DNA from: a virus | Taxonomy: Duplodnaviria; Heunggongvirae; Uroviricota; Caudoviricetes | Strand: one strand, 5' to 3' | Length of the DNA: 28,644 bases | IMG/VR virus record: IMGVR_UViG_2711768060_000004 | Location: 1-28,644 of that record | Shown here: one piece after another, positions 16,711-24,401 of the stretch | Layout: each line of letters opens with the position of its first letter | How positions within the stretch are numbered: the stretch's first letter is position 1 | Notes under the pieces: model-generated | What the model was told of the DNA's origin: nothing | Database searches by the model: none | The model's input: the letters and a program-made list of their open reading frames with translations, nothing else | Position numbers and translations under genes: made by a program

Positions 16711-16833
16711 GCCTTTTTCCCTTTTCTGGTTAACGTGACATACCAATAACTCTTGTCGAAACAGCCAGCAAGCTGAAAGACCAGTATTCACAACCACCAG
16801 CGCGTTTAACGTCCTGTACCGTTTTTCTGGCAT

Positions 16834-16856
16834 AAAAAAACCCGCTCAGCGGCGGG
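16834..16856 (-). terminator. tR'-like terminator downstream of the Q-like gene
   Basis: Minus strand CCCGCcgctgaGCGGG followed by TTTTTTTATG, about 65 nt after the Q-like stop; the gap (16857-16922) is AT-rich and would hold the late promoter/qut, boxes not confidently assigned. Confidence 0.6.
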
Positions 16857-16922
16857 CCTTGCTTACTTTGCCATCGCGTACAAAATCGGCAAAATATCAA
16901 ATTTACACGAAATGTACGCGCT

Positions 16923-17618
16923 TTAATTGATTTTTGCAATATCTCGTCGCGAAAAGGTCGCTTTTTGTTGCGCTCTCATTTTCACTGTGCAAATCAAGGA
17001 TTCTGTATCAAGATTCTTAAAAATGTCGCACATCTCACGCCAGTAGTTCGCATAATTATGGCTCCAGTTGTCAGGTTTAACTCCACACAGTCTGGCAAGT
17101 TCCTGTCGCTGGTAGTTCTCATGCCCGGTTACCCATCCCCTGACATCCTGCGCCGCCAGCCAGATTAATTTTTTCAGGCGCTCCCGTGTTTTCTCCGCAA
17201 TTTTTCTGGTACCAGATTGCGCGTTAAATTCATTCCACGCCCACTGTGTTATCGCAATCTGGTGTTCCCAGCAAATGCTGCCGCTGTAACACCACAGCAA
17301 CCAGGCTTTATGGTGTTCTTCAAGAGACAGAACCGCCCGTCGCCATGATGATGTCGAAAACTCAACCTGACTTACCAGAGGAATTGACGTCCCCTTTGCC
17401 AGCGATTGTTTCCCCGGGATTGGTGGATTATCCCGCGTGATAATTTTTCCAGTCACTTCATCGCGGTACCGGATTTTTTTACGCCTGTAACGCCCTGTAT
17501 CGAACATGGCATTCTCCTGCCAGGCCTCAAGCTGACCTTTTGTTGCTCCACTCAAATCGGCGGTGGCGATAATGAGCTGCTCACGCACAAACTGTAAATA
17601 CTGGTTATTCATGCGCAC
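16923..17618 (-). CDS. Putative late-gene antiterminator (Q-like)
   Basis: 231 aa, directly after rusA and before a terminator plus late genes, the position of Q in lambdoid genomes. Sequence is not lambda Q; assignment is positional. Confidence 0.5.
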   Translation of the reverse strand: MRMNNQYLQFVREQLIIATADLSGATKGQLEAWQENAMFDTGRYRRKKIRYRDEVTGKIITRDNPPIPGKQSLAKGTSIPLVSQVEFSTSSWRRAVLSLEEHHKAWLLWCYSGSICWEHQIAITQWAWNEFNAQSGTRKIAEKTRERLKKLIWLAAQDVRGWVTGHENYQRQELARLCGVKPDNWSHNYANYWREMCDIFKNLDTESLICTVKMRAQQKATFSRRDIAKIN

Positions 17619-17968
17619 TCCAGTTCTGTGATTTTTATCCCCAACCGACCACCAGGAACAGGCAGTCCGCGCACAATATTTATTTCATCAAACTGCTCGT
17701 CGTCTATGAGAAGTCCGGCATGCGTCAGCGCATCCAGTGGTGCTTTCAGAATATTGTCCAGGTCACGACGGCGCTTATCCGGTGGCTCTGCAACAATCTT
17801 TATCGCCAGCCTTCCGGACAGGTTTAACTTCAGCCGCTGCTGGCGAACAATAAGCGCCACATCACGGCGATAACGCTCACCGGCTTTTGATACAAAATAT
17901 GTGCTGCCACGACGACGCCAGTAGGTGTTCACCGTCGGCGGGTAAGGCAAAACAAACTCTATACGCAT
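17609..17968 (-). CDS. rusA: Holliday junction resolvase RusA
   Basis: 119 aa; LPYPPTVNTYWRRRG...PDKRRRDLDNILKAPLDALTHAGLLIDDEQ...GGRL matches the RusA signature (PDxRRRDLDNxxKAxxDALT). Confidence 0.85.
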   Translation of the reverse strand: MRIEFVLPYPPTVNTYWRRRGSTYFVSKAGERYRRDVALIVRQQRLKLNLSGRLAIKIVAEPPDKRRRDLDNILKAPLDALTHAGLLIDDEQFDEINIVRGLPVPGGRLGIKITELECA

Positions 17969-17980
17969 CAGTAACCTCTT

Positions 17981-19030
17981 TTACCCGAGCACGCCGGTTG
18001 CAAAGGCGTGATCAAGAAAACGAAAAATTAAATCAACCTGGGAACCATGCTTTTCTTCAAACGCCAGCGGATCCGCATGAAGTTCATTGTGATGCTCCCG
18101 GCACAGCGGTAACGTGAAAATATCGTGGGCTTTTGTTCCCATTCCACCCTGACCATGACCAATCAGGTGATGGGGATCGTTGGCTGGCTGACCACAACAC
18201 GCACACGGCTGTGTCTTTACCCAGCGTGTGTATTTCTCATTTATCCAACGGCGACGTTTAGGTCGCTTCATGAAAGATTCCGGAGACTCCGGATCTACGG
18301 CAATGCTGACCACCGTCTTTTCCTGTGGTGCGTTCTGTTGCTGGTGGACGTGAGGCAACGGCGCAAGATTTTTTGTGCGCTGCTTCAGTATGCTGGTGGC
18401 GGTCTGCTCTCCCGGTATGATGTCGCTTTCGCGGTACACCGAGCGGATTTTTTCCGCACGTAATCCCAGCGAACGACGCAATACTGTCTCCGGTAGCGCG
18501 TCCGCCACCTGATTGCAGACTGCCCACCAGGATAATTCAGCCAGCGATAATTCCCGCTCCTGTGTGCCATTCATTGCCTGGCGTATGACGTCAATCATCC
18601 ATGCTGTCAGGTTTTGGTGAGCAAGTTGCCCGAGTGATTCGGAAGTCTGGTCACGCAGCTGGTTGTCGCAGTGCCAGCACAACACCATCGCGCCGGTACC
18701 GTAACGATGTATGACGGTTTCACTGTGATGGTAGTCACCATGAGGCCACTGGCAGGATTTGACATGACGCAGGAGCCAGTCAGACAATGCACCTGCGCCG
18801 CCGGCAGCACGAATCACCCGCTCATCGCTGAAAAATGGCAGCAGAGATTTATCTTCCGCCAGCGGCTGGCAAGCGGCAGGAACGACCCCGGACGGCAGCC
18901 CGCGCATGCTTTTCGGTTCAGGCTCCACCAGCACACGCCCCTGCATAAACAAAGGCATCGCATCAGGACCGGGCCTGAAAAGTACAATCCCCAGACGGTG
19001 AGCAATTTCAGGAGTCACTAATACCCGCAC
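17981..19030 (-). CDS. DUF968-family protein (YdfU-like) with C-terminal HNH-like Cys/His motif
   Basis: 349 aa, same length and position as Qin ydfU; C-terminus CACCGQPANDPHHLIGHGQGG...LPLCREHHNELH resembles an HNH/zinc-finger nuclease motif. Confidence 0.6.
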   Translation of the reverse strand: MRVLVTPEIAHRLGIVLFRPGPDAMPLFMQGRVLVEPEPKSMRGLPSGVVPAACQPLAEDKSLLPFFSDERVIRAAGGAGALSDWLLRHVKSCQWPHGDYHHSETVIHRYGTGAMVLCWHCDNQLRDQTSESLGQLAHQNLTAWMIDVIRQAMNGTQERELSLAELSWWAVCNQVADALPETVLRRSLGLRAEKIRSVYRESDIIPGEQTATSILKQRTKNLAPLPHVHQQQNAPQEKTVVSIAVDPESPESFMKRPKRRRWINEKYTRWVKTQPCACCGQPANDPHHLIGHGQGGMGTKAHDIFTLPLCREHHNELHADPLAFEEKHGSQVDLIFRFLDHAFATGVLG

Positions 19031-19031
19031 G

Positions 19032-19316
19032 TTACCTCCAGATGCGTTGCTGGAATGTGCGGGACGGACGCGGTGGGCGTTCGGAATAAGGGAGTCTGAC
19101 GTAGATTATCCAGTGACGATAATCGAGGGTGAGGGCTTTCCTAAACTCATACCCACGTCTGCGGTAGTTCTGAATCAGCCATTCGGCCTGTTCTTCAGTG
19201 CAGGGATCGTGCTGATACCAGTCATATTTGAATGCGTGAGAACGCCGCCCGTGCCTGCTGGCAAAGACGGCTGAATTATCAGAATTGTTAATTTTTTTGT
19301 AATGCACCACTACCAT
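19032..19316 (-). CDS. Hypothetical protein (94 aa)
   Basis: ORF abutting the DUF968 gene start within the minus-strand operon; no motif recognised. Confidence 0.4.
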   Translation of the reverse strand: MVVVHYKKINNSDNSAVFASRHGRRSHAFKYDWYQHDPCTEEQAEWLIQNYRRRGYEFRKALTLDYRHWIIYVRLPYSERPPRPSRTFQQRIWR

Positions 19317-19376
19317 CCTCGTAATGGTGCGACAGACGCCAGTTGTTCAGGCTGGCTTTAACTATAGCATTATAAT

Positions 19377-19571
19377 CTAGTCTTTCTTAATGCTGAAGTG
19401 ACTGACCGAATCCGCATGCGATTCTTTGGTGATCAGAATAACATCGGGTGGCAATGGCATTACGATAAATTCACCATTCTCAAGAACTATTACTTCATAA
19501 TTACCAGGTACAGAAAGCGCAGCAATTAATTCCTTATCGTTCATAACCAAAATCCCGTGAACTTTAAACAC
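19377..19571 (-). CDS. Hypothetical small protein (55-64 aa)
   Basis: Track ORF (GTG start) or internal ATG (MNDKELIAALSV...); a 12-bp perfect palindrome CCCCTTAAGGGG sits just upstream (19574-19585). Confidence 0.3.
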   Translation of the reverse strand: MFKVHGILVMNDKELIAALSVPGNYEVIVLENGEFIVMPLPPDVILITKESHADSVSHFSIKKD

Positions 19572-19728
19572 CTCCCCTTAAGGGGTCCATCCCTCTTCTC
19601 CCTGCGCGCTACTTAAGAGCCTCGATTCTAGCCGTGAAGACATACCAATCAACAGCAATAAGCCACCTGAATAACAGAATCAGCCAGCCACATCAGTACA
19701 ACCAGATGCATCATGCTCACTGAAAATA

Positions 19729-19790
19729 AACAACAAAAAACCCGCCGAAGCGCTGAGGGGTCCCCATAAATCAGCGCTAAAGCGGGTTAA
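19729..19790 (-). terminator. hok mRNA 3' terminator (long imperfect hairpin plus T-run)
   Basis: Minus strand CCCGC-TTT-AGCGCTGA-(tttatggggacccc)-TCAGCGCT-TCG-GCGGG followed by TTTTTTGTTGTTT, about 65 nt after the hok stop. Confidence 0.6.
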
Positions 19791-19855
19791 GTGCGGGTGC
19801 ATTGAGGATACCTGACAACTTAAAGAGTGGCGGGAATTGCTCCCCGCCGTAGCTC

Positions 19856-20008
19856 TTAACGTTTTTCAACTTCGTAGGCTAAATACGCTGAAAGCTCTGT
19901 GTTTCCCTGCCTGATGTGCAGCTCGCATAGCGAACCGCGAACCATCCAGACAAATATCAGAATGGTGATGCAAACCACCACCAGACAAAACACATAGCTC
20001 CTTCGCAT
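19856..20008 (-). CDS. hok: Hok/Gef-family type I toxin
   Basis: 50-aa ORF MRRSYVFCLVVVCITILIFVWMVRGSLCELHIRQGNTELSAYLAYEVEKR vs Hok ([34 protein letters not shown]): transmembrane helix plus conserved SLCE..R.G...A...AYE. Under 60 aa, so absent from the ORF track. Confidence 0.8.
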   Translation of the reverse strand: MRRSYVFCLVVVCITILIFVWMVRGSLCELHIRQGNTELSAYLAYEVEKR

Positions 20009-20066
20009 TACAGCCCCCTGTTAGTTGATTTCTTACTGTTAAGAGGCTAATCTTTATGTGTCGCAT
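19866..20066 (-). CDS. mok: mok-like overlapping reading frame (modulator of killing)
   Basis: 66-aa track ORF starts 58 nt upstream of hok and overlaps nearly all of it in another frame, the classic mok/hok arrangement. Confidence 0.6.
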   Translation of the reverse strand: MRHIKISLLTVRNQLTGGCNAKELCVLSGGGLHHHSDICLDGSRFAMRAAHQAGKHRAFSVFSLRS

Positions 20067-20125
20067 ACAGAATGCCTCAGATTAATGTTAAGCGTCTTGC
20101 CGGACGCGTAATGTTAACTGGGGCT
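20025..20125 (+). ncRNA. sok: Candidate Sok-like antisense RNA with its promoter
   Basis: Plus-strand TTGATT (20025-20030), 17-bp spacer, TAATCT (20048-20053); predicted start near 20060, antisense to the mok start region (mok ATG at 20066-20064). The 3' end is not defined. Confidence 0.4.
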
Positions 20126-20184
20126 TTTCTCTATCTGCCGTTGGTGTTCATGCCCGAGGCAGATAGCCTCAAGCACCCGCAGCA

Positions 20185-20212
20185 ATTCTACTTAACTCTC
20201 CTTTTCCCGCAA
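20185..20212 (-). promoter_or_regulatory. Candidate hok/mok mRNA promoter
   Basis: Minus strand TTGCGG (-35), 16-bp spacer, TAGAAT (-10); predicted leader of about 110 nt before mok, as in hok/sok loci. Confidence 0.4.
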
Positions 20213-20299
20213 ACCGTTTTTATCCCCAGCGGCAAATCGAATACACCACCAGCGCCACCGCCATCGCAATTCCTACCGTTGTGAATGCTTCAGGCCAAG

Positions 20300-20896
20300 T
20301 CATCGTAAAATATCCTCCGCGCTTATCAGTCCGTTCCGCTCCAGATAACTCATCGCCTTATCCGGTAATTTGCAGTCCGGCTTCGCTTTCCTCAATTGGC
20401 TAACCAGTTGTTTAATCAGCATTGTTAATTCCCGTACCTGAACGTCCCCTTTGGTATCCTCATTGGTGAGGATACCATCGTCTTTCCCCTGAAGCATGGC
20501 GGCGCAGCAGGCGTTCCATGAAATTTCCTGAAGGGAACGACGAATCTGTGTGCTGCATATACTCCTCCCTGACTCCTGGCTGTTAAACCATGTTTCAAAT
20601 TCCGGCACTACCGTCGCTGGCGGGGCGGTGTAAAGTGGAACAACTCGCCCTCCCCATTGCTTAACACTACTCTCCGCGAACACTAAATGCTCAGTCCGAT
20701 AATACCCGGGGGCATCAATATCTTTTCTTTCGCTATCCCACATGTAAACCACCGGCTCTGCTTCCAGCGATGCCAGTGCGATACGAAACACATTAGTAAG
20801 CAGGCTGTTTGAAGATTGGTTATCGTGCGCCGGATCGCTCAGGAAACCAGTGATGAATGATTTAATTTCCGCGTTTTCTCTGGTAATAGTGGTCAT
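20300..20896 (-). CDS. Hypothetical early-region protein (198 aa)
   Basis: Track ORF 20300..20986 trimmed to the ATG at about 20896 (MTTITRENAEIKSF...), 1 nt after the upstream small gene stop; no family recognised. Confidence 0.45.
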   Translation of the reverse strand: MTTITRENAEIKSFITGFLSDPAHDNQSSNSLLTNVFRIALASLEAEPVVYMWDSERKDIDAPGYYRTEHLVFAESSVKQWGGRVVPLYTAPPATVVPEFETWFNSQESGRSICSTQIRRSLQEISWNACCAAMLQGKDDGILTNEDTKGDVQVRELTMLIKQLVSQLRKAKPDCKLPDKAMSYLERNGLISAEDILR

Positions 20897-20897
20897 A

Positions 20898-21116
20898 TCA
20901 GTTTTCCTTATACGGATTAATTTTATTGTGTAGTGTGTTGAACGGCGCCCATACCACGTCGTTATACAATTCAATAACTGGCTCAATTATTTTCCCGATA
21001 AACCAGACCAGTAATAGCGGGGATATCGGTATCATCAACACGATAAACAGAATGAGAAACAGAAATTCTGTTGTTCTACTCTTTCGCGGATATTTTTTTC
21101 TAAATAATGTGACCAT
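20898..21116 (-). CDS. Small membrane protein (72 aa)
   Basis: MVTLFRKKYPRKSRTTEFLFLILFIVLMIPISPLLLVWFIGKII...: basic N-terminus then one or two transmembrane helices. Preceded by AGGAGG plus a perfect hairpin CCGCCCgaaaGGGCGG and an AT-rich tract. Confidence 0.4.
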   Translation of the reverse strand: MVTLFRKKYPRKSRTTEFLFLILFIVLMIPISPLLLVWFIGKIIEPVIELYNDVVWAPFNTLHNKINPYKEN

Positions 21117-21210
21117 TCATTACCGCCCTTTCGGGCGGCCTCCTGATGATTTGAGGGTGAAGGAATCCCTCCGGTTAAGGATTAAATTTTATTTGCAACA
21201 CTAAATTTAA

Positions 21211-21735
21211 TTATTCAGGCGAGCGAATCTGTTCCGCACAATGCAACAATGCTTCTGTCACTTCCTTAAGCGTTACGGTATCGGCATCATCCAGTCCTGC
21301 AACTTTTGCGTGCCTGACAAACGCCGCGCGAAGTTCGTCAAACGCCACCGCCCGTACATCAGCCAAGAAAGCATCTCTAGCCGGGGTTTGCGGCATACCT
21401 CCGTCTGTTGCGCAGATATACGCATCAGATATTTCATCCTGCTCGCCATTAAACACATAGCAACTCTGTACGATAAATTTATTCAGCCGCGCATTCTCCG
21501 CCGCCAGCGTCATGCGTTCTTTCTCAAGTCGGAAAATTTCAGTCACGTATTTGGCGTTTTCACCACCCTTGATTAACTCGTTAATTCGTTTGCTTTTAAT
21601 TTCCAGTTCATCCAGCAGTTCCAACACAACCTGAGGTGTGGCTTTCATACGAAATGCCAGCAATTTTTGTGGTGTGGCTGCTATTTTTATTGCTTCTGCC
21701 GCCCCACGCAGTGCCTGATAGTCAATCTTGCTCAC
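21211..21735 (-). CDS. Early protein, possibly Ead/Ea22-like (coiled-coil)
   Basis: 174 aa starting MSKIDYQALRGAAEA..., which recalls the N-termini of Ead/Ea22-like lambdoid proteins. Call from memory, low certainty. Confidence 0.35.
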   Translation of the reverse strand: MSKIDYQALRGAAEAIKIAATPQKLLAFRMKATPQVVLELLDELEIKSKRINELIKGGENAKYVTEIFRLEKERMTLAAENARLNKFIVQSCYVFNGEQDEISDAYICATDGGMPQTPARDAFLADVRAVAFDELRAAFVRHAKVAGLDDADTVTLKEVTEALLHCAEQIRSPE

Positions 21736-21988
21736 TGGTTGTCTCCTTTTTCCATGTTTTCAGACTTTCACCACAGAACGGACAAAATGAAACCCGCACT
21801 GGTGATTTAGAAAATTCACCGGAACGCAACATCACCAAATCAGGGCCGCGAGTTAAATTCTCATTCCAGATTTTGTATATCAGCAGACCTTTTCGCATCG
21901 TGTATTCAGCATCATGCTCAAGGGACTTTGCCAGTGCTGCACATGGTTCTATCTTGTTGCCCTTAACCTGGCATTTTGATTCACTCAC
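21722..21988 (-). CDS. Small hypothetical protein with CxxC zinc-ribbon-like motif
   Basis: 88 aa; overlapping start and stop with neighbours (translational coupling); ...CPFCGESL... plus upstream Cys. Confidence 0.4.
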   Translation of the reverse strand: MSESKCQVKGNKIEPCAALAKSLEHDAEYTMRKGLLIYKIWNENLTRGPDLVMLRSGEFSKSPVRVSFCPFCGESLKTWKKETTSEQD

Positions 21989-22407
21989 CGCACCACCTCC
22001 TGAAAATTACCCTGATAAAACGCCAGTACGCGCTGCATAGCTTCTCTCTTCCGGCACTCGCTACAGATTATGTTCTGACGCCTGTCGTAGCGGCGTATTT
22101 CTCCGTCTGGTAACTTTCGAATCAGTGTCAGGTCGGTTCTTTTCTCCGGTGTCTTACGCCATACGCGATACGCCTGCTCTGATGCAAAAACACCGTATTT
22201 ACCGGACATGTATAAATCGCCACAAGCCAGCACATCCACAAGGCAGCGTCGAACCGAATGCCAGCCTGCTCCCGTCGCTCTCTCCAGCTGTGACATCGTC
22301 ATGCGTCCATTTTTGCGTACCAATCCGATAATTCGTGCCTTCAGCTCTTCCCGCTGTTCGAGAGAAAAAGGTTTCGCCATAAATCCTCCTGAAAAAATCA
22401 CCTTCAC
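21985..22407 (-). CDS. Hypothetical protein (140 aa)
   Basis: ORF coupled to flanking genes in the early operon, downstream of the P-like gene; contains a CSECRK motif; no family recognised. Confidence 0.4.
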   Translation of the reverse strand: MKVIFSGGFMAKPFSLEQREELKARIIGLVRKNGRMTMSQLERATGAGWHSVRRCLVDVLACGDLYMSGKYGVFASEQAYRVWRKTPEKRTDLTLIRKLPDGEIRRYDRRQNIICSECRKREAMQRVLAFYQGNFQEVVR

Positions 22408-22410
22408 AAT

Positions 22411-23076
22411 TCATACAAAACCAGCCGCTTTCCGGCGTTCATACTCCTGTTTCAGCAACTCAATTGGTGTTGGCCCCGACGGGCGTTTTGGTGCTGCCAG
22501 TTGCCGCCGTACGGGCGGAACGCTGAAGCCGTCACCAACATGCTTTGCCCATTTCGTCAGTTGCCGTTCTGCAAGCCGTTTTAACTCCCCTTCGGTCATC
22601 TGGCGCTCAATCCCCTTTGAACGCATCTCGAGGCAAATGTGATACAGCACAGGCTGAGGCCACGGATATTTATCGCTTCCGTCGTATCGCCAAGACTCAT
22701 TGCGCCAGCGTCGGTACTCCTCCATCACAGCATCCACCGTCAGACCGAATGGATTGGCCCCGCTTTCCGAAATCAGCGCCACAAACTCAGCCAGGTCCGG
22801 AGGCCATGTTTCACCTGCCCTGCAACGGTCCATGCACTGGCGGCAGACCTGCCGGATTTGCTGCTCAGTCATCGCGCCAATCTGTGCAATCCAGAGCTTC
22901 GAAGGTGCGGCCCCGTTCTTCTGGGTCCAGCGGTTCGAATAAACCTCCCCCATGAGTTCCCACAGCTTCCAGGCAGTTTCCGTCGTTGATAAATCCGTTT
23001 TCACGCTCCCACCGCTCACGTGCTGCCCGAATTTCCTGAACTGCCCGTGATGCGGTGCCACCTGGTGCTGCTGCAT
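22411..23076 (-). CDS. Replication protein P-like (helicase loader)
   Basis: C-terminal half resembles lambda P ([13 protein letters not shown] vs [30 protein letters not shown]...[13 protein letters not shown] vs ESYPWKSNAHYWLVTNL...TDAELRRKAADEL). Start uncertain (ATG at 23076, about 22953 or about 22872); the longest form overlaps the O-like gene by about 210 nt. Confidence 0.6.
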
Positions 23077-23911
23077 GGTTTACCCCCTTGCTGACTGGTT
23101 TAGCCTGCGCCCTGACGTGATTTACGTGACGGGCGAATTTCTGCTCCCACTGAACCTGCGTGAAAACTTTACCCTCCGCTGCCCAGTAGTCCCGGAAGGC
23201 GGCAAGTTCAGCTGGTGTAAATTCCGGCTCCGGCAGAGCCACTCCCCACAGAGCCGCCCGTCGTCGAAAATCCGGCGACGGATGCCAGCCATCGGTCATC
23301 GGAAATTTCCCGATGGGTTCGCTCAGGCCTTCCAGGTAATCAGGTTCCGCTGTTTGCAACGGCACGCCATTTGCCTCACTGGTCGGAGCACTCTCGCGCA
23401 CGCGCGCGTTATGTGTGGGGTTTAATTCTTTATCTGTATCTTTATCTGTCGTGACTCGTCGTGACATGTCGTGACATATGCGTGACTCGTCGCGCCCCCC
23501 CTCATTCTGTTTTCGTAATTTTTCCCTCTCGCGCTGCGCTCTCTTGCGCTCTGCCGGGGATTTCGCGGTTTGTGAAACGTTGCCATTGTCCTCTTTCAGT
23601 ACCTGGCGTTTTTCCCATCCACTGATCAAATCTCCATCAAGTACCCGCCCCTGCATTGCCTGTAAAATTGAATCAATTACTTCTTCCGTCACATCAAGCG
23701 CACTTGCTAAATCTTCCGCCGTGACATCAATGTGACCACGTAGTGACACGCCGTGACATGTCGTGACATTTCGTGACGCGCTCACCAGAAGGTGGATATA
23801 CACAGCCATCACTGTTGCGATTGGCTGTCCTGACACCCTGGAAATTGTTCGCCACTTAGGATCGTTTGGCATGTCATGCCATAATCTGAGCCAGGCGTTA
23901 GCCATACTCAC
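22865..23911 (-). CDS. Replication initiator (O-analog; YdaU/DUF1376-like N-terminus) containing iterons
   Basis: 348 aa (GTG start at 23911 or ATG two codons later); N-terminal domain then a hydrophilic linker encoded by iteron DNA ([16 protein letters not shown]); lies between immunity genes and the P-like gene. Confidence 0.5.
23421..23490. repeat. Origin-like element: AT-rich tract plus four direct repeats of nnGTCGTGAC
   Basis: tttaattctttatctgtatctttatctgtc followed by GTGAC copies at about 23451, 23461, 23471, 23483 (10-12 bp spacing), inside the O-like gene as ori-lambda lies inside O. Confidence 0.55.
23719..23780. repeat. Six direct GTGAC(A) repeats at about 10.5-bp periodicity
   Basis: ccGTGACatcaatGTGACcacgtaGTGACacgccGTGACatgtcGTGACatttcGTGACgcgc, within the 5' part of the O-like gene. 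Confidence 0.55.
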
Positions 23912-23975
23912 CTCTTCTGATACCGAATCTTTTACTCACGAATTGCCGGAAGCGATCCGGTATGAATATTGTCAG

Positions 23976-24401
23976 TCAATGCACAACCACAATATTTCCC
24001 GCCGGGCCACCACGATTCATCTGGTTGAAACCAGCGATCGCCACTGCGACAAAATCATCAGCGTCTCTCACCAGTCGTTCCCGCGTCTCCACCAGCTCCC
24101 GAAAATAGGCTGAACTGTGGCTGCGCATTCGGGCCACCAGCAGCGGCGGCATTGCCTTTTCGATCGCTGGTAACAGCGCCTGAATTTTTTTAACCGCATC
24201 AGGGGTGTCTTTCTCCACCCAGCGGAAAATTTTCTGAGTATTGCGAGCTAGGGCTTCCGGATAACTGTCGTCATACAGTTCCGGGAATGTCATACCCAGC
24301 TCAAAATAAGCCCGGGTTATTTCAGCTGCCGGAACTTTTTCACCGTCCGGATGCGCCCAGGCACTCATCGCCATGCGGATGTGTTCATGCTTGATTTTCA
24401 T
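23976..24401 (-). CDS. ydaT: YdaT-like protein (Rac prophage YdaT family)
   Basis: 141 aa, begins MKIKHEHI and ends ...VVVH as I recall for E. coli YdaT; immediately downstream of the Cro-like YdaS homolog. Confidence 0.55.
   Translation of the reverse strand: MKIKHEHIRMAMSAWAHPDGEKVPAAEITRAYFELGMTFPELYDDSYPEALARNTQKIFRWVEKDTPDAVKKIQALLPAIEKAMPPLLVARMRSHSSAYFRELVETRERLVRDADDFVAVAIAGFNQMNRGGPAGNIVVVH

Follow-up and report, generated by a model that had tools for sequence, protein, structure and literature searches.

The DNA analyzed here, called the window, is the whole 28,644-nt stretch of IMG/VR virus record IMGVR_UViG_2711768060_000004 (Caudoviricetes). At 19733-20178 it very probably carries an intact hok/mok/sok type I toxin-antitoxin (TA) cassette, an accessory gene of the delayed-early (nin-like) region of a lambdoid prophage. 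The hok/sok locus is a textbook type I TA system, in which an antisense RNA restrains a small peptide that kills through the membrane. Its identity in the window is supported by the agreement of the protein family of the toxin, the RNA family of the mRNA leader, four complementary boxes, a predicted end-pairing switch, and homology to a characterized relative. A complete hok/mok/sok locus had been proposed for this place from the sequence alone (the original prediction), and every element that it named was found where it had been placed (Table 1). Positions in the mRNA are counted from the predicted transcription start (+1 = 20178), which is also the first position of the Rfam model RF01794.

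Coding frames, leader, and complementary boxes

The 50-aa product of hok matched the Pfam family HOK_GEF (PF01848) with 70.4 bits (gathering cut-off 22; E=9.6e-20), and positions 3-42 of the 42-position profile were aligned to residues 6-45 of the protein. In an alignment with HokA-E, HokW, R1 Hok, and plasmid Hok, the motifs VFCLVVVCITILIFVWMV, SLCEL, and LAYE were in register, and the protein has the layout of the Hok/Gef family, with a hydrophobic transmembrane stretch at the N terminus, then the conserved (S/D)LCE motif, and then a C-terminal AYE-like motif. As the original prediction had described, the hok frame is overlapped, almost wholly, by a 66-codon mok-like frame. The latter begins 58 nt 5' of the hok AUG, and its stop codon precedes that of hok by 10 nt. 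The mok frame has a Shine-Dalgarno (SD) sequence of its own, and the same arrangement (GAGG, 8 nt, AUG, out of frame with hok) is found in R1, where mok has 70 codons, and in an IncI-type plasmid locus, where it has 67. At the sequence level this is the R1-type organization of an overlapping upstream mok frame with its own SD, and the translation of hok is predicted to be coupled to that of mok. The 66-aa mok product had no Pfam match, which is expected because what counts is that mok is translated, not the product itself (PMC9841398). A 70-aa open reading frame (ORF) on the plus strand (20072-20284), antisense to the leader, was taken as spurious; it has no Pfam match and overlaps the structured leader and the promoter.

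The predicted start of the mRNA lies 112 nt 5' of the mok AUG, and TTGCGG-16-TAGAAT stands before it, in agreement with the mRNA promoter that had been placed about 110 nt upstream. A scan of the whole window with Rfam matched the leader to RF01794 ("sok"/CssrC) with 93.7 bits (gathering cut-off 59; E=3.9e-20) over model positions 1-157 of 157. An Rfam scan for the Sok RNA had been suggested as a check of the original prediction; the match was obtained, but on the strand of the hok mRNA and not on that of Sok, with the model running from 20178 to 20006 and ending in the hok AUG. The same holds for 12 of the 12 other family loci that were matched, which include 933W hokW, K-12 hokB, hokC, and hokE, hokD of PSS-15, and two plasmid loci, and in all of them the model ends in the hok AUG. 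The name of the RNA family is misleading as to strand. The annotated RNAs sokW of 933W and sokC and sokB of K-12 lie on the strand opposite to the RF01794 match.

Four short boxes in the mRNA are complementary to one another: UGAGGC in tac (translational activator), GCCUCG in ucb (upstream complementary box), UGAGGC again at the mok SD, and GCCUCU in dcb (downstream complementary box), so that UGAGGC and GCCUC each occur twice. R1 hok/sok has been described as following the same four-box logic (PMC9841398), the source from which the definitions of the elements were taken. The dcb box overlaps the Sok -10 region of the opposite strand. Farther 3' lie fbi (the fold-back inhibition box) and then the terminator, a hairpin of -30.3 kcal/mol followed by a U run, where a long terminator hairpin had been expected. 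The terminator is composed of the hokD-type hairpin AACCCGC-UUCG-GCGGGUU with an extra inner palindrome of ~30 nt in its loop. The palindrome, AGCGCUGA...UCAGCGCU, is located at 19749-19778 (minus strand); among the aligned loci it is shared only by the window and the 99.8%-identical locus of ETEC4085, and the other loci with the same hok allele lack it and diverge from the window through that stretch.

Table 1. Positions of the cassette elements and of the neighboring genes in the window
Feature	Position	Strand	Basis or remark
Putative hok/mok promoter, -35: TTGCGG (16-nt spacer) or TTTGCG (17)	20207-20213	-	sequence; same in 933W hokW
Putative hok/mok promoter, -10: TAGAAT, 6 nt before predicted +1 (20178)	20185-20190	-	sequence
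Full-length hok/mok mRNA (predicted, 446 nt), tac 5' end to terminator U run	19733-20178	-	fold, end pairing
mRNA leader, RF01794 match	20006-20178	-	Rfam covariance model
tac box, GGGUGCUUGAGGC	20166-20178 (mRNA nt 1-13)	-	folding
ucb box, GCCUCGGGCAU	20150-20160 (mRNA nt 19-29)	-	folding
Sok antisense RNA (predicted, ~69 nt), covers mok SD and AUG	20060-20128	+	mapped from annotated sokW of 933W
mok SD GAGG, within CUGAGGCA, 8 nt before mok AUG	20076-20079 (mRNA nt 100-103)	-	sequence
mok AUG	20066 (mRNA nt 113)	-	sequence
mok-like ORF, 66 codons + stop, out of frame with hok	19866-20066	-	ORF list
dcb box, GCCUC within UUAGCCUCUUA	20043-20047 (mRNA nt 132-136)	-	complementary to mok SD
Putative Sok promoter, TTGATT (20025-20030)-17-TAATCT (20048-20053)	20025-20053	+	sequence, sokW positional homology
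hok AUG	20008 (mRNA nt 171)	-	sequence
hok toxin ORF, 50 aa, MRRSYVFCLVVVCITILIFVWMVRGSLCELHIRQGNTELSAYLAYEVEKR	19856-20008	-	ORF list, PF01848
fbi box, CCUCAAUGCACCC	19795-19807 (mRNA nt 372-384)	-	folding
Intrinsic terminator, long bipartite hairpin 19739-19788 (mRNA nt 391-440) with U-rich tail UUUUUUGUUGUUUAUUUU	19725-19788	-	folding
Helix-turn-helix (HTH) repressor (HTH_3)	24719-25228	+	
YdaS-like Cro	24385-24681	-	
YdaT	23976-24401	-	
DnaT-domain O-like protein	22865-23911	-	
Lambda P	22411-23076	-	
DUF977	21985-22407	-	
Ead/Ea22	21211-21735	-	
228-aa ORF	20300-20986	-	
27-aa hydrophobic ORF, MTWPEAFTTVGIAMAVALVVYSICRWG	20220-20303	-	
DUF968	17981-19030	-	
RusA	17609-17968	-	
Q	16923-17618	-	
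Methylase	15316-16362	-	
tRNA-Thr(tgt) and tRNA-Gly(tcc)	14995-15148	-	
TerB-like protein, holins, M15 endolysin, Nu1, terminase	below 14000	-	

The predicted Sok RNA and mRNA switch

The transcription starts of hok and of Sok are both predicted. The putative Sok promoter (Psok) has its -10 element, TAATCT, in the same position as TAACCT of sokW (933W: TTGCCT-17-TAACCT), and the homologous position of the R1-type locus reads TTGCGC-17-TATCCT in the alignment. G20060 is the 7th nt after the -10 of Psok, and the annotated start of sokW is likewise the 7th nt after its own. In sokW, mutation of the -10 (a "pro-less" construct, according to the primers) abolished the antitoxin activity, which was partly rescued by sokW in trans (Takada et al., PMC8621323). 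It is this positional homology to the R1 and sokW promoters that suggests Psok is the antisense promoter. The original prediction had called it a good sigma70 promoter; the two hexamers are present and in the sokW-homologous position, but with 7 of 12 consensus bases it is not a good one.

The predicted Sok RNA has a single-stranded 5' tail of 14 nt, a long hairpin, and a UUUU end, with a folding energy of -27.7 kcal/mol. Its 3' 55 nt are identical to those of SokW, and its 5' tail, which lies over the mok AUG, differs from the tails of both SokW and SokD. At the sequence level only, it conforms to Sok of the R1 type, being cis-antisense, with a promoter inside the 5' part of mok, and complementary to the mok initiation region.

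The fold-back elements of the mRNA, which had also been named as a check, were looked for by thermodynamic folding. The minimum free energy (MFE) of the 446-nt mRNA was -192.5 kcal/mol, compared with -133.5 +/- 5.6 kcal/mol for 100 shuffled sequences (z=-10.6). The MFE structure is closed by pairing of tac with fbi (GGGUGC:GCACCC and UUGAGG:CCUCAA) through 12 bp (6+6) with one bulged U, and the mean probability of these pairs in the ensemble of the full-length RNA was 0.99. The duplex of tac with the 3' untranslated region (UTR) had an energy of -21.5 kcal/mol, and a duplex as good was found in 2 of 1000 shuffled UTRs. Once fbi was removed, tac was predicted to pair with ucb instead, with a probability of 0.98 in RNA 1-371 and 0.94 in RNA 1-360, and the 11-bp tac/ucb hairpin (3-13:19-29) was the MFE structure of both the nascent 35 nt and the RNAs of 330-371 nt. 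A compensatory change was also found: position 4 of tac and its partner in fbi form U-A in the window and C-G in the IncI-type plasmid locus. The modeled change from tac/fbi to tac/ucb pairing is that of the R1 hok switch.

The mechanism is likely to be the same as in R1 hok/sok and hokW-sokW. By analogy with these, the weak constitutive promoter TTGCGG-16-TAGAAT would yield a stable mRNA of ~446 nt. In the nascent transcript, tac would be held in the hairpin with ucb, and on completion the 5' tac would be locked to the 3' fbi, so that the closed mRNA would be untranslated and would bind no Sok. Slow 3' trimming, presumed from the relatives, would remove the terminator and fbi, upon which tac would pair again with ucb, the mok ribosome-binding region would be rearranged, and translation of mok would drive the coupled translation of the overlapping hok. 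As long as it is made, the unstable Sok of ~69 nt would pair across the mok SD and AUG and lead to a translation block and to RNase III cleavage of the duplex. If Sok synthesis stopped through loss of the element, shut-off of transcription by an infecting phage, or prophage induction, Hok would insert into the inner membrane and kill or lyse the cell. The 3' processing, the instability of Sok, the toxicity of Hok, and the biological role are presumed in this scheme.

Several points weigh against this interpretation. The match of the promoters to the consensus is weak, with 7 of 12 bases for Psok and 8 of 12 for the hok/mok promoter, and a simple consensus promoter/terminator scanner called neither; both were therefore placed by homology and not by consensus. 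The same scanner also missed the bulged terminator and flagged an intragenic hairpin at 19961-19982, outside the elements of the cassette. In the folds of the full-length mRNA and of the 360- to 371-nt RNAs the mok SD stays paired elsewhere and the probability of SD/dcb pairing is about 0; the SD/dcb hairpin (101-105:132-136) was seen in the fold of the first 145 nt and not in longer ones. The unmasking of the mok SD was thus not reproduced by equilibrium folding of 3'-truncated RNAs, and the translational-activation step is therefore predicted from homology. In addition, the full-length MFE structure places ucb in a local hairpin (13-21:40-48), where the drawing for R1 has ucb on the mok SD. 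Finally, the terminator hairpin is larger than in hokD-type loci, which could slow or alter the 3' processing.

The only promoter that the scanner called in 19500-20500 was TTGATT-16-TAGAAT (9 of 12) at 19625-19652 on the minus strand, which lies past the hok terminator by about 80 nt and precedes a 64-aa ORF (19377-19571).

Relatives, mosaic composition, and genomic context

The cassette belongs to an already known kind, and its exact toxin is in RefSeq under the correct family name. We compared it with the described members of the family. The system hokW-mokW-sokW (933W/Sp5, AF125520), shown experimentally to be a type I TA system (PMC8621323), has the same promoter, tac, ucb, Sok hairpin, and Sok 3' end, all identical, a fbi that is 87% identical, and the same geometry of the Sok promoter; it is also located in a lambdoid prophage, with the same small hydrophobic ORF just upstream. 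However, the HokW toxin is only 36% identical to Hok of the window, mokW is an in-frame N-terminal extension of HokW (70 codons) whereas mok here is out of frame, and the 5' recognition tail of SokW and the hokW terminator differ from those in the window. In addition, the place of hokW in 933W is not between P and Q but close to the right genome end (at 58.5 of 61.7 kb). The hokD gene (relF) of Qin-type prophages occupies the same slot as the cassette, upstream of DUF968 (ydfU)-Q (ydfT), and intact hokD loci of other strains share 80-97% of the leader, 93% of fbi, and the terminator core AACCCGC...GCGGGUU. HokD is 36% identical, and mok of PSS-15 is a leader ORF of 19 codons whose end overlaps the start of hokD in AUGA. 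In K-12, where the order of the Qin genes is relB-relE-hokD-rem-ydfU-ydfT, the gap between relE and hokD is 71 nt without an RF01794 match, the whole leader and Sok having been lost to relBE; the leader is present here, in agreement with the original view that this copy is intact and K-12 hokD is not.

The closest toxin in the searched collections is that of an IncI-type (MOBP/MPF_I) plasmid, for example WP_001387489.1 on NZ_CP011333, with 32 of 50 identical residues (64%). This Hok/Gef locus is probably the pndA/pnd system of R483. Its mok is out of frame and, as in the window, ends in SLRS, and its RF01794 match has 131.7 bits, but the locus is plasmid borne, its leader is 13-70% identical, and its Sok hairpin region is much shorter. 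The hok/mok/sok (parB) locus of R1 has the same elements in the same order, that is, promoter, tac, ucb, Sok and its target, mok SD, dcb over the Sok -10, mok/hok, fbi, and terminator (PMC9841398). Its mok also lies out of frame over hok, although its leader sequence has diverged, its Hok is 48% identical, and its role is plasmid stabilization. The most similar chromosomal Hok of K-12 is HokA, with 25 of 50 identical residues (50%) and the SLCELHI motif in common; K-12 hokA is disrupted by IS150, has no RF01794 leader, and is chromosomal rather than in a prophage. HokE is 42% identical and HokB and HokC are 40% identical.

The comparison reveals that the locus is a mosaic, in which a divergent toxin block is enclosed by a leader identical to that of hokW and an fbi of the hokD/W type. 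The first ~100 nt of the mRNA are 100% identical to hokW and 80-97% identical to intact hokD. The mok/hok coding block is only 33-57% identical to hokW and hokD and 63-77% identical to the IncI-type plasmid locus, and the bin that contains fbi is again 87-93% identical to hokW and hokD. One of the junctions of the mosaic falls at the 5' recognition tail of Sok. Near-identical leaders occur with three relations of the mok and hok frames: out of frame with 66 codons in the window, in frame with 70 codons in hokW, and 19 codons in hokD of PSS-15. It may be proposed that the mosaic arose by a natural cassette swap, in which a plasmid-type (IncI/HokA-like) toxin/mok block entered a hokW/hokD scaffold (promoter, tac, ucb, Sok hairpin, fbi, and terminator core), giving an orthogonal Sok and an induction-coupled Hok; taken as a whole, we consider this proposal unlikely. 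As a matter of speculation, Sok of the window could be orthogonal to SokW and SokD of co-resident prophages, and, equally speculatively, read-through from the early operon on induction, converging on Psok, could switch Hok on by transcriptional interference.

The 484-nt region of the cassette was covered at 80% or more in 11 of 5,426 complete E. coli genomes, four of which are 99.0-99.8% identical over the full 484 nt (three porcine enterotoxigenic E. coli [ETEC] strains and strain A36 from a native mouse), and the coding sequence in the E. coli copies is annotated as "Hok/Gef family protein" (WP_001585819.1). The exact Hok protein was found under the same name on 532 public contigs (Escherichia, E. 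albertii), and the cluster of at least 90% identity spans Escherichia, Salmonella, Citrobacter, Enterobacter, and E. marmotae. In deposited phage records the hok allele was not found: the best phage protein match was 48% identical, and the phage DNA matches covered the leader only (20040-20212, 36% of the query at 93.7% identity), in the hokW/mokW/sokW region of 933W, VT2-Sakai, and many Stx phages.

Five loci with the same allele (the window, ETEC4085, E7-1N7, 95NR1, and PK8241) were compared for signs of selection. In the overlap of hok and mok there were eight substitutions, seven of which fall at the third codon position of hok, which is the first of mok, and so alter Mok and not Hok; the mok frame is open in all five loci despite its amino acid changes. 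The changes found in ucb of the sister loci (C20U, G24A, and G25A) all retain the pairing with tac, the only variable position of fbi is the bulged U, and no variation was seen in Psok, in tac, or at those positions of fbi that are paired. The pattern of substitutions shows Hok to be under purifying selection and is what would be expected of a functional module.

As the original prediction stated, the cassette lies in the early region of a prophage. It has the same orientation as its neighbors, with the lambda-P-like, DUF977, and Ead genes upstream of it and DUF968, RusA, and Q downstream, and all of the context genes except the repressor run leftward (Table 1). Other prophages hold the same allele or hokD in the same nin-like slot. 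The AUG of the 27-aa ORF overlaps the stop codon of the 228-aa ORF (ATGA), and ~7 nt separate the end of the ORF from the hok -35. In 933W, a close variant occupies the corresponding place upstream of hokW; the exact peptide occurs on 79 contigs as "bacteriophage protein" or hypothetical, with no Pfam match. The sister locus of 95NR1 diverges from about position -12 upstream and appears to lack this ORF, which could encode a small membrane protein traveling with the hok leader. The representative of its 90% cluster is a 121-aa DUF551 protein, but a DUF551 C-terminal remnant was rejected for want of any BLASTP similarity, and the cluster link is explained by database entries that are partial or fused, such as "GGESMTWPEAF...".

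The prophage has an immunity region of the Rac/Qin kind, with YdaS-like (Cro-type HTH) and YdaT-like genes opposite a divergent HTH_3 repressor; Pfam gives YdaS and YdaT "toxin" names, and here they stand in the positions of cro and cII. The tRNA pair is located between the methylase/Q genes and the lysis cassette, and the same pair is annotated in the ETEC4085 prophage. In related prophages of Shiga toxin-producing E. coli (STEC) the matched region includes the stx2 genes; no ORF of Stx2A size was listed in the tRNA/lysis part of the window, where stx was not searched directly. Two sister prophages with the same hok allele (L012 and L013, each 357-558) have a C4 antisense RNA, a1/b1 targets, and isrK near an ORF6N antirepressor gene, and the whole-window Rfam scan gave no C4, a1/b1, or isrK-type RNA in the window. 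Over window positions 12000-28644 (16.6 kb), no complete E. coli genome reached a coverage of 80%, the best cover, 74% at 92.7% identity, being that of Stx2e-type STEC prophages. Taken whole, the prophage is therefore a new mosaic, while the hok cassette itself is not new.

Alternative readings and the role of the cassette

Could the cassette be a decayed, non-functional relic, as hokA and hokD of K-12 are? The chromosomal hok loci of laboratory K-12 are often inactivated, hokA by IS150 and hokD by relBE, neither with an RF01794 leader, and the promoters of the window, weak by consensus, and the extra palindrome in its terminator would fit such a fate. However, all of the elements are present and uninterrupted, seven of the eight substitutions in hok are at third positions, the exact protein is found on 532 contigs with its 90% cluster spread over Escherichia, Salmonella, Citrobacter, and Enterobacter, and Psok, tac, and the paired fbi positions are invariant in sister loci, which makes decay very improbable. 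We give still less credence to the reading in which Hok is produced mainly by read-through of the early rightward operon and Psok is no significant source of antisense RNA. It draws on the co-orientation of hok with the upstream early genes (Cro-like YdaS, O-like, P, DUF977, and Ead), on the distance of only ~7 nt between the cassette and the last upstream ORF stop codon, and on the low consensus score of Psok. Yet by position Psok is homologous to the promoters of R1 and sokW, which are functional (PMC8621323), and it is invariant in the sister loci, the predicted hairpin and U-tail of Sok are canonical and identical to those of SokW, and the early operon is off in a repressed lysogen, in spite of which the cassette has kept a TAGAAT box and a conserved +1 region of its own.

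A third alternative concerns the role and not the identity of the module, whose main function might be prophage addiction or stabilization through post-segregational killing, or abortive infection, rather than help in the lysis of its own host. This we regard as quite conceivable, although we incline away from it. R1 hok/sok stabilizes plasmids via post-segregational killing (PMC9841398), on a high-copy plasmid it cut T4 plating by 42% according to its citation in PMC8621323, and the recurrence of the cassette in the same nin-like slot of many lambdoid prophages is what a mobile accessory gene would show. The sequence favors no role over another, but the sole direct test in a prophage, that of hokW-sokW in Sp5, gave loss of sokW and RecA-dependent production of HokW after mitomycin C, with twofold more released phage (PMC8621323). 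By analogy with hokW-sokW, our best guess is therefore that the cassette would help lysis on induction.

If the assignment is confirmed, it changes little, considering that prophage copies have been described (hokD in Qin and hokW-sokW in Stx phages) and one of them has been characterized experimentally, and the mosaic and the enlarged terminator are minor variations on a well-known theme. Its practical value lies in annotation: mok, Sok, both promoters, and the tac, ucb, dcb, and fbi boxes can be placed to the base, and they are unannotated in the public copies. The mosaic is also a modest illustration of how such modules evolve by recombination with the tac/fbi pair kept matched, and the transcriptional interference speculated on above would, if true, couple killing or lysis help to the induction of the prophage.

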